Below, one piece after another: positions 3,893-12,569 of a DNA stretch of 64,000 nucleotides. Position 1 is the stretch's first letter. Each line of letters opens with the position of its first letter. A program made the position numbers and the translations under genes. This DNA is from a virus. The stretch covers positions 32,001 to 96,000 of IMG/VR virus record IMGVR_UViG_3300032073_000008; one strand, written 5' to 3'. The notes below the pieces were generated by a model. The model searched no databases. It worked only from the letters and a program-made list of their open reading frames with translations, and had not been told where the DNA came from.

Positions 3893-4441
3893 CTACATAA
3901 GATTTTCAATAAAGCCAATAATTTTTTTCGTATCTTCAGGGACATTGTGTTCAAAAGCATGGACACATCCAGCTTCGCCCATCAATATTTTTTCCCCAAA
4001 CATATCTTCAATGTTAGCAACTTTCGTTACTCGCCCATTGATAAATGTTTCTGATTGATCAGAACCTCTATCAGCATAACGCTGTTCACGAACAGCATCA
4101 TCTGTTTTTAATACTATAATTGTTAGATCATGCCCTGCTCTCTTCACAGCCTCAAAGAACTTAGAAGAAGTCAATCTGTCACCCTCGAACACTACGACAG
4201 GTGATGGATTGTTTTCTAGGTATTCAATTGCCATTGGCTGTACTGCCATTGACAGTTTATCAGTACCAGCAAACACTTCTCCTTCATCATATTTACCAAA
4301 CAAACGGATATCTCCAGAAACATAACCATCAAGCAACTTAACTGGAGTATCTTTAGTCCACTCTCGTTTTGACATCCACTCACGCATAAGTGTTGTTTTT
4401 CCAGTTCCTGGAATTCCAATAATACCAATCACTTTACTCAT
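3893..4441 (-). CDS. P-loop nucleotide/DNA-base kinase (candidate 5-hydroxymethylpyrimidine-DNA kinase)
   Basis: GIPGTGKTT Walker A, VVVFEGDRL; last gene of the modification operon with an ATGA overlap to the TET/JBP gene. Confidence 0.7.
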   Translation of the reverse strand: MSKVIGIIGIPGTGKTTLMREWMSKREWTKDTPVKLLDGYVSGDIRLFGKYDEGEVFAGTDKLSMAVQPMAIEYLENNPSPVVVFEGDRLTSSKFFEAVKRAGHDLTIIVLKTDDAVREQRYADRGSDQSETFINGRVTKVANIEDMFGEKILMGEAGCVHAFEHNVPEDTKKIIGFIENLM

Positions 4442-5826
4442 GAAAAGAATCCTTCTAATGATGACTTTGTCACAACAGCTTCTGGATGATATTGCGATAA
4501 CATTCCTTCACCGCCTTTCTGTTTCAGATAATCATACCACTCATCTTCAGCCCACATATTTGGCGAAACACCATTCCAAAATTCTTTCCACAACTTGTGG
4601 TTCTTATTGAGTCTGCGATCATCAACATATTGTCTACGCAGTTTTTCATATTCCCAAGAACCAACCTCAAGCATTTTTTCACGGAAGTAGCATACAAGAG
4701 ATATGCGTTCCATTTCTTCAATAGTGGTTCCAGCAGGTGGTTTCAGTTCAGTGTTACCATGAATGCCACCATGATTATTGATCAACAAAAGATCTCCTGG
4801 ACGGATATTGATACCTACACGAAACTCTGGAAGGACAAGATAACCACCTTCCCAATTCTTTTCTTTAGCAACAACAGTAAGGTTTGAAAATCCTTCATTC
4901 AAATCACCAGCATCTCTGTGAGCTGCAGTTCTGAAGTTTTTATTTACAGTAATCGTAGTGAACGGTGTATCTTCACCAGCAACACGAAAGCGTGGATCTA
5001 GCTTGCTTGCAGCTTCGTTTTGAATACCATAACGAATAGGTAAATGCTCCTTAAATTTGTCAGCTAATTGACGCATGAAAGGATAGCACTTCTCATAGAC
5101 AGGATAGTTGTTCTCTGTATACGCAGTTGCTCGACCGTATGGAATACGAGGATATCGATCAAAGAATCCAGCAATACCTGACAACACCATGTTAGCATAT
5201 GTTGTCTCAGAGATATAGTTCTTTTGAGTTGCCTTTGCGTCTTTCTGAGCATCCTCTGCTGACATACCTTGCCATTCAGCAACCTTGTCATTGAAGAATG
5301 ATTCGTAATTATAACCACTATCAGTGATCTTAGATCTGATCCAAACTATACCACGAGATTCACCTGCTGTAATTGAAGCATGTTTTGCTCTGATTCTTTC
5401 TACTGGATCAGTGTCATCTTCAAACAGAGAAACTTCACGCTCAGCAAAGTGCTTCATAATATCAAGCTGTTCTTCAGTTACCCAATCACGACCGCCTTGC
5501 TTTGCTCCTTTTGGACCAGCAGCAAGACCACGATTTTGTGTAGGTAATGCAGCACCTAATAATCCTTCATAAGCACCGTGCTGTTGTTCTTCAGTAAAAA
5601 CATTTTTGCGAAACTTAAAGATAATGTTATCTTCATTATTCTCACCACCAAACCCAGCAGGAGCATAGAAGTCAGTATCTTCTTCACAAATAAAATCCCA
5701 GTCAGTATCTTCCATATATTGACCGAGTTTGTGTTCACAATCATCCCAAAACTTGGCTGTAATGATTCTGACATTGTTTACATTATCTACCTTAACATCA
5801 TACTTTTCGTTTATCACACCAATCAT
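4438..5826 (-). CDS. TET/JBP-family 2OG-Fe(II) DNA dioxygenase
   Basis: FTTITVNKNFRTAAHRDAGD (HxD), GGYLVLPE..V..RPGDLL, HGNT (distal His), ERISLVCYFREKM (RxS). Confidence 0.88.
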   Translation of the reverse strand: MIGVINEKYDVKVDNVNNVRIITAKFWDDCEHKLGQYMEDTDWDFICEEDTDFYAPAGFGGENNEDNIIFKFRKNVFTEEQQHGAYEGLLGAALPTQNRGLAAGPKGAKQGGRDWVTEEQLDIMKHFAEREVSLFEDDTDPVERIRAKHASITAGESRGIVWIRSKITDSGYNYESFFNDKVAEWQGMSAEDAQKDAKATQKNYISETTYANMVLSGIAGFFDRYPRIPYGRATAYTENNYPVYEKCYPFMRQLADKFKEHLPIRYGIQNEAASKLDPRFRVAGEDTPFTTITVNKNFRTAAHRDAGDLNEGFSNLTVVAKEKNWEGGYLVLPEFRVGINIRPGDLLLINNHGGIHGNTELKPPAGTTIEEMERISLVCYFREKMLEVGSWEYEKLRRQYVDDRRLNKNHKLWKEFWNGVSPNMWAEDEWYDYLKQKGGEGMLSQYHPEAVVTKSSLEGFFS

Positions 5827-6833
5827 ATCATAAATCTCTCTATTCCAACATTACTCATTTCATTTGTAAAAGTATTCATATGGTCTATCTTCCCAGTGTC
5901 TAGGAATATCTCCATTTTACTCTTACTTATCGAATTAGTCAAGTATTCATTTCTCAATGTCTCTTTTCTAGCATCCCACATGGGTGTCCAGTCAATACCA
6001 TCCCATCCATCTCTCTCCACTTGCTTTATTTCTTCAGCTTGTCTGTCAATATAATAACCAAGATAACGACCTCTACTCTTGCGAAACAGTTTCTTAAATG
6101 AACACAGTGCTGTTTCCATAGCAAAAAAGTCTGCTTTGCTCTCAGCATTTGGGTGTGTGCGTTTTACATCTTCGAGTATTTTCTTTCCTTCTCCTTCCAT
6201 CCATTGTATTTGATCATCTTCGAGCTTTTTATTCACCCAATCATCTTTACCTAAAGCATAACAAAGACCATTCCGATGAGATCGAGATCCAGAATAGTCA
6301 TGTAACCATAGACTTGGAACATCAACATTGAGACCAGCACACTGCTTTAGAGTTTGGATATAAAACCAAGATGTGTATCTTCCGAACTTGTGTAATGAAG
6401 TTACAGAATCCCAAACTTTTTGGAAGTTTTGATATTTGTCGCCACGACATAACTCTTCAAATGCATCTTCTTGTTTCCTACCACCAACCCATTCTTTATA
6501 GGAAACAAATTGATCAGCAAGATGACCTTTATTCCATTTTGTATCTGTTTGATATCTGAGACGCGAATAGTTTTCATTGTTCCATTCACGCAAACGATCA
6601 ACACCAACCAACTCCATATCAGGGAACTCATTCCAGATAAGGTATGCTGTTGGGAAGTTGTATGTTGTTCCATATAACCAACAGAGCCATAACTTCTGTT
6701 CTGTGTTATATTCAAACCGATCAAAGAAGTAATTTGTGAGATACAATGCTGAGTCACAATCTTCTATCTCAAGACTCCACTTAAACCAGTTGACAAATGC
6801 TTGTCTACGATGTTCACTTAATCTATAATCCAC
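5823..6833 (-). CDS. Alpha-glutamyl/putrescinyl-thymine pyrophosphorylase clade-2-like amino acid:DNA transferase
   Basis: WLYGTTY, RYQTDTKWNKG, FGRYTSWFY, GSRSHRNGL, ETALCSFKK, RYLGYYIDRQ; GTG start overlaps the GNAT stop. Confidence 0.8.
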   Translation of the reverse strand: MDYRLSEHRRQAFVNWFKWSLEIEDCDSALYLTNYFFDRFEYNTEQKLWLCWLYGTTYNFPTAYLIWNEFPDMELVGVDRLREWNNENYSRLRYQTDTKWNKGHLADQFVSYKEWVGGRKQEDAFEELCRGDKYQNFQKVWDSVTSLHKFGRYTSWFYIQTLKQCAGLNVDVPSLWLHDYSGSRSHRNGLCYALGKDDWVNKKLEDDQIQWMEGEGKKILEDVKRTHPNAESKADFFAMETALCSFKKLFRKSRGRYLGYYIDRQAEEIKQVERDGWDGIDWTPMWDARKETLRNEYLTNSISKSKMEIFLDTGKIDHMNTFTNEMSNVGIERFMI

Positions 6834-7489
6834 TAAAAGAATTCCTCTAGAGTGTTTGGCTCATCACCTATTAATTTATCACGCATCCAAAACTCTCCTA
6901 CAGAAGAAATAGCTTCTTCTACAGTAGCAGTCTTTTTCTTACCAAAGCCATGAGACTCAAGCGATTCATCAAACAATTGTTTGATCACCTTTGGATCTTT
7001 AGGCAAAGCCAGATGCGGGACATTAATTGCTGTTGCCCTAAATGTGCACTGCTCCCTGATAGAAGGAAACAGTGGTTGATCAGAACGCAACGACCCAGTT
7101 GGATCAACAGCCCAAAATATCAAACCATTTCTTTTATGCCAAGTTATAGAAGATGGAGTGCAAGATATTTTCAAACGACTCATGCCATTATTAAAAGCAT
7201 CACTCATTACTCTTTCCCAGATAGCTGTAGCATATCCCTTTCCTTCATGACCTTGCCTAGTTACAATCTCATATAGATTAATATATCTCGATCTTTGACT
7301 ATAAGTAGCAAACACAAATGCAACCATTTCGCCATCAACCTCTAAGGCAAATGGCTTATTATCTTTTTCATAGTTTTTAAAACGAAACCACAAACTGTGT
7401 GATGAATTGAGGAACTTTGTATTTTTTCCTTCAGGGGAGTTCTCAATGACTTTCTCAATCATCTCTTGTGAACATCTTACTATGCGCAT
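6833..7489 (-). CDS. GNAT-family acetyltransferase
   Basis: NLYEIVTRQGHEGKGYAT acetyl-CoA-binding motif A; WHKRNG. Confidence 0.8.
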   Translation of the reverse strand: MRIVRCSQEMIEKVIENSPEGKNTKFLNSSHSLWFRFKNYEKDNKPFALEVDGEMVAFVFATYSQRSRYINLYEIVTRQGHEGKGYATAIWERVMSDAFNNGMSRLKISCTPSSITWHKRNGLIFWAVDPTGSLRSDQPLFPSIREQCTFRATAINVPHLALPKDPKVIKQLFDESLESHGFGKKKTATVEEAISSVGEFWMRDKLIGDEPNTLEEFF

Positions 7490-8172
7490 TGTAAGTCTCT
7501 CACTAATGCACCACCACGCAATGGAGAAGATTTCTCTAGCTTTCCATTGTATGTGTATGTTACATACATGTCTGTTCTTTGTTGATTTGTAATTGCACTT
7601 CTTTTTAGAATATCTTTTGTTGATGCGAATACAATACCATTATTTCGCTCACTATACCATAGTGGTCTTGCTTCATTTCTAAATCCAGTTAGACTCTTAT
7701 CTTTTTTGATACGACAGACAGCCATACTTGATGGGTAAAAATCATTCAATGGATCATTACCAGCCTCATATGATTTCAATATCAATTCACTGTCATTAGC
7801 TGTTTCAGTGTTATATTTCCACTTCTCTTTATCTTCTTGTGATATAACACCATTGTGAACAATACTTTGATCACCATTAGAGAAAGGTTGATTGTATCGA
7901 AGATCAGATGTTGAATAGCGAATATGACCAATAAGGTAGATACCACCATCCTCATTTATCATACTCTGAATTGGATATTTTGCGAGGAACTCATCACAAG
8001 GGATGCCCTCTTTTATCGTATATATCTTAGAATCTTTGACATATGATACACCAGTCGCATGTTTCCCTCTTATCATAGATTCGCGGAAAATACGCTCTAC
8101 CAGTTTAACATTCTCAATACTACCACGACTGACAGAGGATCTCTCTAACCAAACGCCTATCACACCACACAT
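7480..8172 (-). CDS. Class II (Ntn) glutamine amidotransferase, stand-alone glutaminase domain
   Basis: N-terminal MCGVIG, RG.HATG, GHIRYST, NQPF, HNGVI, NDSE. Confidence 0.9.
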   Translation of the reverse strand: MCGVIGVWLERSSVSRGSIENVKLVERIFRESMIRGKHATGVSYVKDSKIYTIKEGIPCDEFLAKYPIQSMINEDGGIYLIGHIRYSTSDLRYNQPFSNGDQSIVHNGVISQEDKEKWKYNTETANDSELILKSYEAGNDPLNDFYPSSMAVCRIKKDKSLTGFRNEARPLWYSERNNGIVFASTKDILKRSAITNQQRTDMYVTYTYNGKLEKSSPLRGGALVRDLQCA

Positions 8173-11559: not shown

Positions 11560-11588
11560 ATTATACTACAATTCAATACAAGTGTCAA
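11560..11588 (-). promoter_or_regulatory. Perfect-consensus sigma70 promoter for gp47-gp46-def
   Basis: TTGACA-N17-TATAAT. Confidence 0.85.
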
Positions 11589-12142
11589 GCAGAGTCCTTA
11601 GAGACCTTTTTCTTCACTTTTCTGCGTTTATTAGCTTCAAAGTCTTCAACAAACCGAGCCATATACTCTTCAGTCCATTCACTATACTTCATATCATCAT
11701 TATAGTCTTTACCACCATCGTGTTCTTGTCGATCTGATGTGTCACCTACCACATTGGTGTGTTCAGCATATTTAATTTTGACATAGAGATTCTTTTTCTC
11801 TTTCTGAATTCTACGAAGAAACGCATAGTAGATAATCTGAGTAAAATAGGCAAATGGATTGTTTGACTTCTCAGGGTTAAAGTTGTCAATATATTGTAAA
11901 CAGTTTTCAATACCATCGCAGATCATTTCATCGCGAAAAGTATAGTTCACAAAGTTTGGTTTATATGACAAGTGGGTGGCGATCTTCATGATGCATTCAG
12001 CAATATAATTAGGAACAACAGGTCTTGGATCACCAGCTTCCTTTGCTTCCATTACACTCTGGCGAAATTCAGTCATCGCCCCCAGAAACTTTTTATTGTC
12101 TACATAATATGGCTTTTTCTTCGCTTCTTTGCTCTTACTCAT
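11585..12142 (-). CDS. gp55: Late-transcription sigma factor
   Basis: YVDNKKF, KIATHLSYKPNFVNYTFRDEMI.DGIENC, NPFAYFTQIIYYAFLRRIQKEKK; start MSKSKE after GAGGGG. Confidence 0.95.
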   Translation of the reverse strand: MSKSKEAKKKPYYVDNKKFLGAMTEFRQSVMEAKEAGDPRPVVPNYIAECIMKIATHLSYKPNFVNYTFRDEMICDGIENCLQYIDNFNPEKSNNPFAYFTQIIYYAFLRRIQKEKKNLYVKIKYAEHTNVVGDTSDRQEHDGGKDYNDDMKYSEWTEEYMARFVEDFEANKRRKVKKKVSKDSA

Positions 12143-12149
12143 AATCCCC

Positions 12150-12569
12150 TCAATGCATTGATGTATTTGCTGATAAATGATAGACATTATCTATCTGTTT
12201 TGGTTTATCATCTATAATTTTTAATTTCTTCAACAGCTCATCTATTTCTTGTGCTGTCATCGAATCCTTCTTACTATTAAAAAAAGTGCCACCATCTTCC
12301 CTCATCGCCCTTAAACAGTTATCATAATATTCAACCATATCATCATCAACATCTACTGTTACTAGGATAGTAGATTGTTTTAAGTGAAGCAAGTTTACTG
12401 CTTTAGTTAATGGAACCCATATTGTAGATATACAAACTGGCGATGCTCCTGTCCTAGACTGTATGATCATTTGAACTGGATCTATAATATGTAGATGAGT
12501 TTCATCTTCATGTGTAACTTCTGCTATTAGTGTATCACCATTCACCAGCTTAATAATCTTAATGCTCAT
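12150..12569 (-). CDS. Conserved T4-like hypothetical protein (Sm-like fold suspected)
   Basis: IIKLVNGDTLIAEV...WVP pattern; syntenic between uvsW and gp55. Confidence 0.6.
   Translation of the reverse strand: MSIKIIKLVNGDTLIAEVTHEDETHLHIIDPVQMIIQSRTGASPVCISTIWVPLTKAVNLLHLKQSTILVTVDVDDDMVEYYDNCLRAMREDGGTFFNSKKDSMTAQEIDELLKKLKIIDDKPKQIDNVYHLSANTSMH

Follow-up and report, generated by a model that had tools for sequence, protein, structure and literature searches.

Sliding clamps serve as tool belts in replication and repair and, in T4, also in late transcription, and in eukaryotes the DNA methyltransferase DNMT1 is recruited to newly replicated DNA by binding of its PIP box to the clamp PCNA. 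Here we describe an operon of a T4-like virus in which three enzymes predicted to modify DNA, a TET/JBP-type dioxygenase, an amino-acid:DNA transferase (ADDT or AADT, formerly aGPT-Pplase) and a GNAT acyltransferase, each end in a short peptide resembling the C-terminus of the phage's own DNA polymerase, gp43, and are thereby probably tethered to the phage sliding clamp, gp45. The stretch analysed (the window, 64,000 nucleotides) comprises bases 32,001-96,000 of a 110,317-base T4-like virus contig of marine origin (IMG/VR record IMGVR_UViG_3300032073_000008), estimated to be 61% complete. As in DNMT1, a DNA-modifying enzyme would carry a short clamp-binding motif; the DNMT1 motif differs in being internal and in serving maintenance methylation, and both its enzyme and its clamp belong to unrelated lineages.

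The closest described peptides are the gp45-binding epitopes of gp43, gp33 and gp55 in T4 and RB69, short hydrophobic and acidic peptides at the extreme C-terminus that follow a variable linker (1B8H; PMC2988020). A crystal structure shows the final 11 residues of RB69 gp43 bound to a hydrophobic patch on gp45, and T4-type clamp-binding tails are freely interchangeable and carried on divergent linkers (PMC2988020). The tails described here are of the same kind, match the tail of the cognate polymerase and occur together with an encoded gp45 homologue. They differ in their carriers, which are base-modifying enzymes (TET/JBP, ADDT and GNAT) and not replication or transcription proteins, and in the lack of the epitope from gp55 of this phage, and their binding to gp45 is predicted. 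An interaction of a modifying enzyme with gp45 was proposed for T4 alpha-glucosyltransferase (alpha-GT) from in vitro work, and is disputed in a recent preprint (bioRxiv 10.64898/2025.12.06.692756). The idea is alike, namely a phage DNA-modifying enzyme working from the sliding clamp during replication; however, no polymerase-like tail is mentioned for alpha-GT, whereas here a conserved, co-varying motif is found on other enzyme families.

Two described pathways share the predicted chemistry. In phage ViI and its relatives, DNA is first made with 5-hydroxymethyldeoxyuridine (5-hmdU) in thymidine's place; kinases phosphorylate 5-hmdU in DNA, AADTs swap the phosphate for an amino acid, and in the PaMx11 pathway a GNAT acetylates 5-aminomethyldeoxyuridine (5-NmdU) (PMC8989533). 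The ViI pathway to 5-aminoethoxymethyldeoxyuridine (5-NeOmdU), with the kinase gp243 and the serine:DNA transferase gp247 (PMC5889632, PMC8989533), has the kinase and ADDT chemistry on 5-hmdU in common with the operon described here, and gp243 and gp247 also end in the tail of their own polymerase. It differs in that TET/JBP would here make 5-hmdU on the DNA itself, and in the class of the tail, which is of the NLLSMM type in ViI. The second pathway is that of phage TET/JBP enzymes linked with glutamine amidotransferase (GATase), P-loop kinase and AADT genes, which are thymine dioxygenases making 5-hmdU post-replication; members of their clade C1 (5mYOX) that lack ParB were inactive when produced by themselves in E. 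coli (PMC13229309). The ParB-dependent enzymes of this clade resemble the one described here in these gene linkages and in their tie to a protein able to encircle DNA or slide on it (ParB there, putatively gp45 here), and differ in that a gp45-type tail is found here instead. Full-text literature searches for the clamp together with these enzymes retrieved no description beyond the T4 alpha-GT proposal; the comparative genomics of TET/JBP by Iyer et al. 2013 was outside their scope. The words clamp and replisome are absent from both principal papers about hypermodification of thymidine (PMC5889632, PMC8989533), the phage TET paper, in which C-terminal His tags were used, mentions only a nearby clamp-loader gene, and the 2026 paper on T-dioxygenases discusses ParB clamps, not gp45. 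Clamp-binding-type tails are thus known, and modification enzymes would constitute a new class of clients, to which the amino-acid-type cassette adds ADDT and GNAT as further tailed, putative members.

The operon consists of five minus-strand genes, transcribed in the order GATase, GNAT, ADDT, TET/JBP and P-loop kinase, and the stop and start codons of adjoining genes overlap or abut. TET/JBP (4438..5826) matches Pfam Tet_JBP (PF12851) with 82.6 bits against a cut-off of 34.9, ADDT (5823..6833) matches PF18724 over residues 34-251 with 84.5 bits against 26.2, and GNAT (6833..7489) matches Acetyltransf_1 (PF00583) with 34.6 bits against 20.7. A class-II GATase (7480..8172, Pfam GATase_6/7) is the first gene of the operon and a P-loop kinase (Ploopntkinase3, 3893..4441, PF18751) the last; within ATGA (4438-4441), the start codon of the kinase gene overlaps the stop codon of TET. 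All three tails read on the minus strand as the sequence-only reading had given them, and each is a putative gp45-docking peptide: TET closes with VTKSSLEGFFS (tail SSLEGFFS, 4441..4464), ADDT with MSNVGIERFMI (tail VGIERFMI, 5826..5849, a G[LI]ExF[FM] variant) and GNAT with GDEPNTLEEFF (tail NTLEEFF, 6836..6856). The motif ends 0-1 residue ahead of the stop codon in all three. The kinase has no tail of its own, and GATase ends VRDLQCA, which is not a clamp-type tail. In an AlphaFold2 model of TET, the last ~12 residues have low predicted confidence (pLDDT) and include a short helix over LEGFF (457-461); as modelled, the tail sits on a flexible linker.

The C-terminal half of gp43 is encoded upstream of the window (C1:15316-16410) and ends KKSSLESFFA. 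It aligns end to end with residues 555-901 of the 903 residues of RB69 gp43, with EKKSSLESFF over EKKASLFDMF, indicating that the gp43 tail of this phage is homologous, and equivalent in position, to a peptide proven to bind the clamp. TET and GNAT end in near copies of it (SSLEGFFS and NTLEEFF against SSLESFFA), so that the likeness to T4-family clamp-binding tails, first drawn from the enzymes only, extends to the phage's own polymerase. gp45 is also encoded upstream of the window (G000:C1:29426-30088), with matches to PF09116 (5.9e-19) and to T4 gp45 (1CZD, 7e-21). Apart from its tail, gp43 is split into an N-terminal open reading frame (ORF) of 484 aa (L001:1471-2925) and a C-terminal ORF of 364 aa (L001:108-1202), and a 90-aa ORF with no assigned function lies between them (L001:1202-1474; the region L001:108-2925 is G000:C1:15316-18133). 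The gap gave no Rfam match, such as an intron, and relatives carry a single gp43 of 811-855 aa.

Short motifs are easily over-read, and resemblance by chance between short hydrophobic C-termini would be one alternative. The strict motif [ST]L[ED]xF[FLMIY] was found three times in the 120 ORFs of the contig (35,290 aa), and all three matches, in gp43, TET and GNAT, lie at most one residue from the C-terminus. When random windows from the same proteins were resampled, 0.013 such matches were expected and 0 of 5000 resamplings reached three. Equivalent counts in two phages with other polymerase tails gave the same picture: of the six matches in Salmonella phage ViI, five are no more than six residues from a C-terminus (0.10 expected), in Vibrio phage D506 all five [KR][KR]LW matches are exact C-termini (0.017 expected), and in both genomes 0 of 5000 resamplings reached the observed five. 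Together with the retention of the tails in hundreds of homologues (see below), these counts effectively refute the chance explanation. What speaks for chance is the behaviour of relaxed patterns, which are needed to match the ADDT tail, missed by the strict motif, and which also match a MazG protein and a baseplate hub protein in the contig. The MazG-like nucleotide pyrophosphohydrolase (L105:514-924, minus strand, G000:C1:24213-24623) ends KPDLEKFL; the tail is missing from MazG of phages DLP6 and Cr30, and we did not count the protein as a client, as its match may be due to chance. The baseplate hub (L106:1938-2639, plus strand, G000:C1:103237-103938), which ends LEGLQSFFT, is a virion protein; the strict motif excludes both MazG and the hub. 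In a tail-tube-like protein of ViI, Vi01_066, SLLGLL stands six residues ahead of the C-terminus; this match and that of the hub are probably false positives of the relaxed patterns.

The tails are strongly conserved in homologues of all three enzymes, as the sequence-only reading requires. Among the best 120 TET homologues (50-90% identical), ~117 end [ST]LExFF with at most one further residue, and the few residues linking the conserved YHPEA to the motif differ in both length and sequence. For ADDT, 105 of 120 homologues end G[LI]ExF[FML] and 9 more end GLEAF (~114 in all), indicating that VGIERFMI is a normal variant of the family. For GNAT, [ST]L[ED]xF[FLMI] is carried by 98 of 120 homologues and ~14 more end VDLFA. 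Such conservation might have a cause other than docking, since a tail could be the by-product of overlapping stop and start signals or act as a stability or degradation signal, and in the window the stop of each tailed gene does overlap or abut the next start. However, synonymous codons vary at every conserved tail position, Leu being written with each of its six codons and Ser with codons of both families, demonstrating that selection acts on the peptide and not on a nucleotide signal; on this ground we rejected a by-product of gene overlap or a DNA-level signal. In addition, the same tail is present on gp43 and on enzymes with differing downstream genes (kinase, TET-associated glycosyltransferase (TAGT) and others), the kinase and GATase lack it in the same overlapping operon, and it switches together with the polymerase tail between lineages. 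A non-docking cause of either kind is therefore very improbable.

Distribution of the motif was followed in 80 related IMG/VR loci comprising 1526 ORFs. It closes 123 of these ORFs, 103 of them gp43, TET, ADDT or GNAT; 15 further motif-tailed ORFs encode TAGTs (PF20691), GT1 glycosyltransferases or another GNAT. The tail is carried by 19/21 gp43, 62/78 TET, 23/37 ADDT and 8/11 GNAT proteins, as compared with 0/37 kinases, 1/30 GATases, 0/17 gp45, 0/15 gp44, 0/25 gp46, 0/21 gp47 and 1/19 gp55 proteins. A metagenomic protein of 661 aa, P0094, is a natural kinase-TET fusion; its N-terminal kinase is 46% identical to the kinase at window 3893-4441 and the fusion ends ATLDNFFE, a clamp-type tail, suggesting that the tail-less kinase works alongside TET. 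As side observations, an HNH-endonuclease-like ORF beside a TET locus (weak Pfam match; L031:8005-8676, plus strand) ends GNTLEEFFV, a clamp-type tail, and GATase homologues in the related loci have a different conserved ending, [FI][ED]DLQ or DLQ followed by two or three residues.

If the enzymes and the polymerase share one docking partner, their tails should change together, and this is what was found. gp43 and TET tails agree on 14 contigs holding both genes, a rare FL variant included (TET GSLAGFL, gp43 SDLSAFLV). The same was seen in cultured phages. In C48C1 the polymerase ends TLEDFFG and TET SLEEFFV; in Stenotrophomonas phage DLP6 the polymerase has TLDSFFA, TET TLGDFFV and TAGT DLSSFFN; and in Caulobacter phage Cr30 the polymerase has DLSSLFD and TAGT DLSKLF, with TET reduced to GATLF and no clear tail on ADDT. 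In ViI the polymerase tail NLLSMMGKKG is accompanied by SLLGLMRKA on the kinase gp243 and NLMSLLKR on the ADDT gp247, and in Serratia phage phiMAM1 the polymerase tail NLLSMMGKR by NLLAMLLRNKK on the kinase and NLLSMLGGKK on ADDT. D506 has RKLW on the polymerase, KKLW on the kinase, RKLW on ADDT and KRLW on HMUDK_hel, and Pseudomonas phage Cygsa01 has VMDFFS on the polymerase, LMGFFQ on ADDT, VFDLF on the HMUD2 kinase and VLDLF on HMUDK_hel. When polymerases and enzymes were re-paired over seven genomes, only 3 of 5040 permutations reached the observed score. Two short ORFs without a Pfam match also end in a polymerase-type tail, ViI Vi01_049c (70 aa, L118:30355-30567, minus strand, KVNLLSLMRK) and a 99-aa ORF of D506 (L126:17591-17890, plus strand, KTKRLW); both may be unrecognised clamp clients.

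Co-variation of this kind would also arise if polymerase and enzymes docked on another common partner, such as the host beta clamp or a replisome hub (gp32, gp59 or gp41). The bacterial beta-clamp-binding motif is of the QL[SD]LF type, short and hydrophobic, with a leading Gln and an LxLF core. The Cr30-type tails (DLSSLF, DLSKLF) somewhat resemble this motif, and for the ViI-like and D506-like tails clamp binding is taken over by analogy. On the other hand, the tails described here ([ST]LExFF and GIERFM) have no leading Gln, and the RB69 peptide to which the gp43 tail aligns is the one crystallised on gp45 itself. Furthermore, the tailed phages searched for gp45 all gave a match (the contig itself, ViI, D506 and Cygsa01; in the last three, two of the three Pfam matches are below cut-off) except phiMAM1, which gave none though its enzymes are tailed; in DLP6 and Cr30 the clamp is annotated. 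The only control phage searched, mycobacteriophage Fortunato, gave no gp45 match. We consider a partner other than gp45 unlikely, somewhat less so than a non-docking cause.

Phages of other kinds have these enzymes without the tail. Fortunato encodes an ADDT fusion, a kinase and a ParB-like protein, which share no tail, and a search detected no family-B polymerase in it. TET of pelagiphage HTVC112P, Nonlabens phage P12024L and Synechococcus phage S-CBWM1 has no such tail (gp45 was not searched for in these three), and in HTVC112P, the TET catalytic domain of which is 45% identical to that of the window, a ParB gene lies directly upstream of TET. A ParB partner for the TET described here was sought as well; ParB (PF02195) gave no match in the contig, which is 61% complete, nor in 27 related T4-like TET contigs, in a search that detected the positive control HTVC112P.

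The TET fold was confirmed by the AlphaFold2 model (pLDDT 82), which Foldseek matched to CcTet, TET2 and NgTET1 at 5e-10 to 4e-8, and H303, D305, H356 and R374, making up the HxD...H iron triad and the 2-oxoglutarate-binding Arg, are invariant across 27 homologues. A search for a C5-cytosine methyltransferase in the 61%-complete contig found none, which fits thymine rather than 5-methylcytosine as substrate, and the enzyme is probably a thymine dioxygenase.

We put the probability at roughly 80% that the TET, ADDT and GNAT tails dock on gp45 and so hold post-replicative hypermodification to loaded clamps. Identity of the motif with that of gp43, its position, conservation and family specificity, its co-variation between lineages and the presence of gp45 were all observed, and from these we infer binding to gp45, an effect on activity and the exact chemistry. 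The claim of the sequence-only reading that three of the five enzymes ride the clamp is thereby supported by comparison of gp43-like tails and their conservation. Several points weigh on the other side. Of the three tails, that of ADDT (GIERFM) diverges most and matches the gp43 tail less well; relaxed patterns give false positives and are not reliable alone, with two structural proteins (the hub, through LQSFFT, and Vi01_066) among their matches. In Cr30, ADDT ends DKWFKVL and the TET tail has shrunk to GATLF. That the ViI-type and D506-type polymerase tails bind the clamp is assumed by analogy, and the 2025 preprint reported no gp45 binding by T4 glucosyltransferases, using C-terminally His-tagged enzymes (bioRxiv 10.64898/2025.12.06.692756). 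Finally, gp55 (window 11585-12187, minus strand) ends KKVSKDSA, without the clamp epitope that T4 gp55 has. The T4 triad of tailed proteins, to which the enzymes had been likened, is hence not fully mirrored here: it holds for gp43 and fails for gp55, and gp33 (77 aa, L106:6988-7221, minus strand) has DLNFL eight residues ahead of its end, not at the terminus.

Under the docking reading, TET/JBP, ADDT and GNAT would each carry in their last 7-8 residues a copy of the polymerase clamp-binding peptide, held on a flexible linker and docking in the hydrophobic pocket of the gp45 trimer once the clamp loader has put gp45 on DNA. Since clamps would sit at the replication fork and remain behind it, the tailed enzymes would be concentrated on the newly made phage duplex and able to slide along it. 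TET would convert T to 5-hmdU, the kinase would then phosphorylate 5-hmdU, ADDT would transfer an amino group or amino acid, perhaps supplied by GATase, and GNAT would acylate the product. The tail-less kinase and GATase would probably act via their tailed partners or by free diffusion. Sparing of host DNA, the benefit suggested earlier, is possible; faster and fuller coverage of nascent DNA would serve equally well. Three enzymes on one gp45 trimer is numerology until shown, and doubtful because the polymerase competes for the same gp45 sites. A stronger version, which we hold as tentative and rather improbable, is that gp45 is the obligatory activator and scaffold of the whole hypermodification assembly line, the clamp replacing the ParB partner in T4-like phages and one trimer serving as a moving toolbelt with oxidase, transferase and acylase. 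If true, this would explain the inactivity of ParB-less clade-C1 dioxygenases expressed alone in E. coli, and could govern how densely, and in what pattern, the genome is modified.

The operon lies near gp46, gp47, gp55, peptide deformylase, hsp20, CobS/CobT-like genes and an extended block of structural genes. It had no match by megablast against 50,697 phage records, and its relatives were found only through protein search.

If the tails bind gp45, phage DNA hypermodification would join the tool-belt functions of the sliding clamp. At least seven enzyme families would then be clients, namely TET/JBP, ADDT, GNAT, TAGT, GT1 glycosyltransferases, the HMUD2 kinase and HMUDK_hel, and the tailed families occur in several lineages of phages, among them T4-like phages and Ackermannviridae. 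Docking would give a physical answer to how post-replicative enzymes cover new phage DNA before host nucleases act, and would account for the inactivity of some phage dioxygenases that are expressed alone or bear C-terminal tags. It also yields a cheap sequence rule, that any protein ending like the polymerase is a candidate clamp client, which could flag unrecognised clients and DNA-modifying enzymes in phages.

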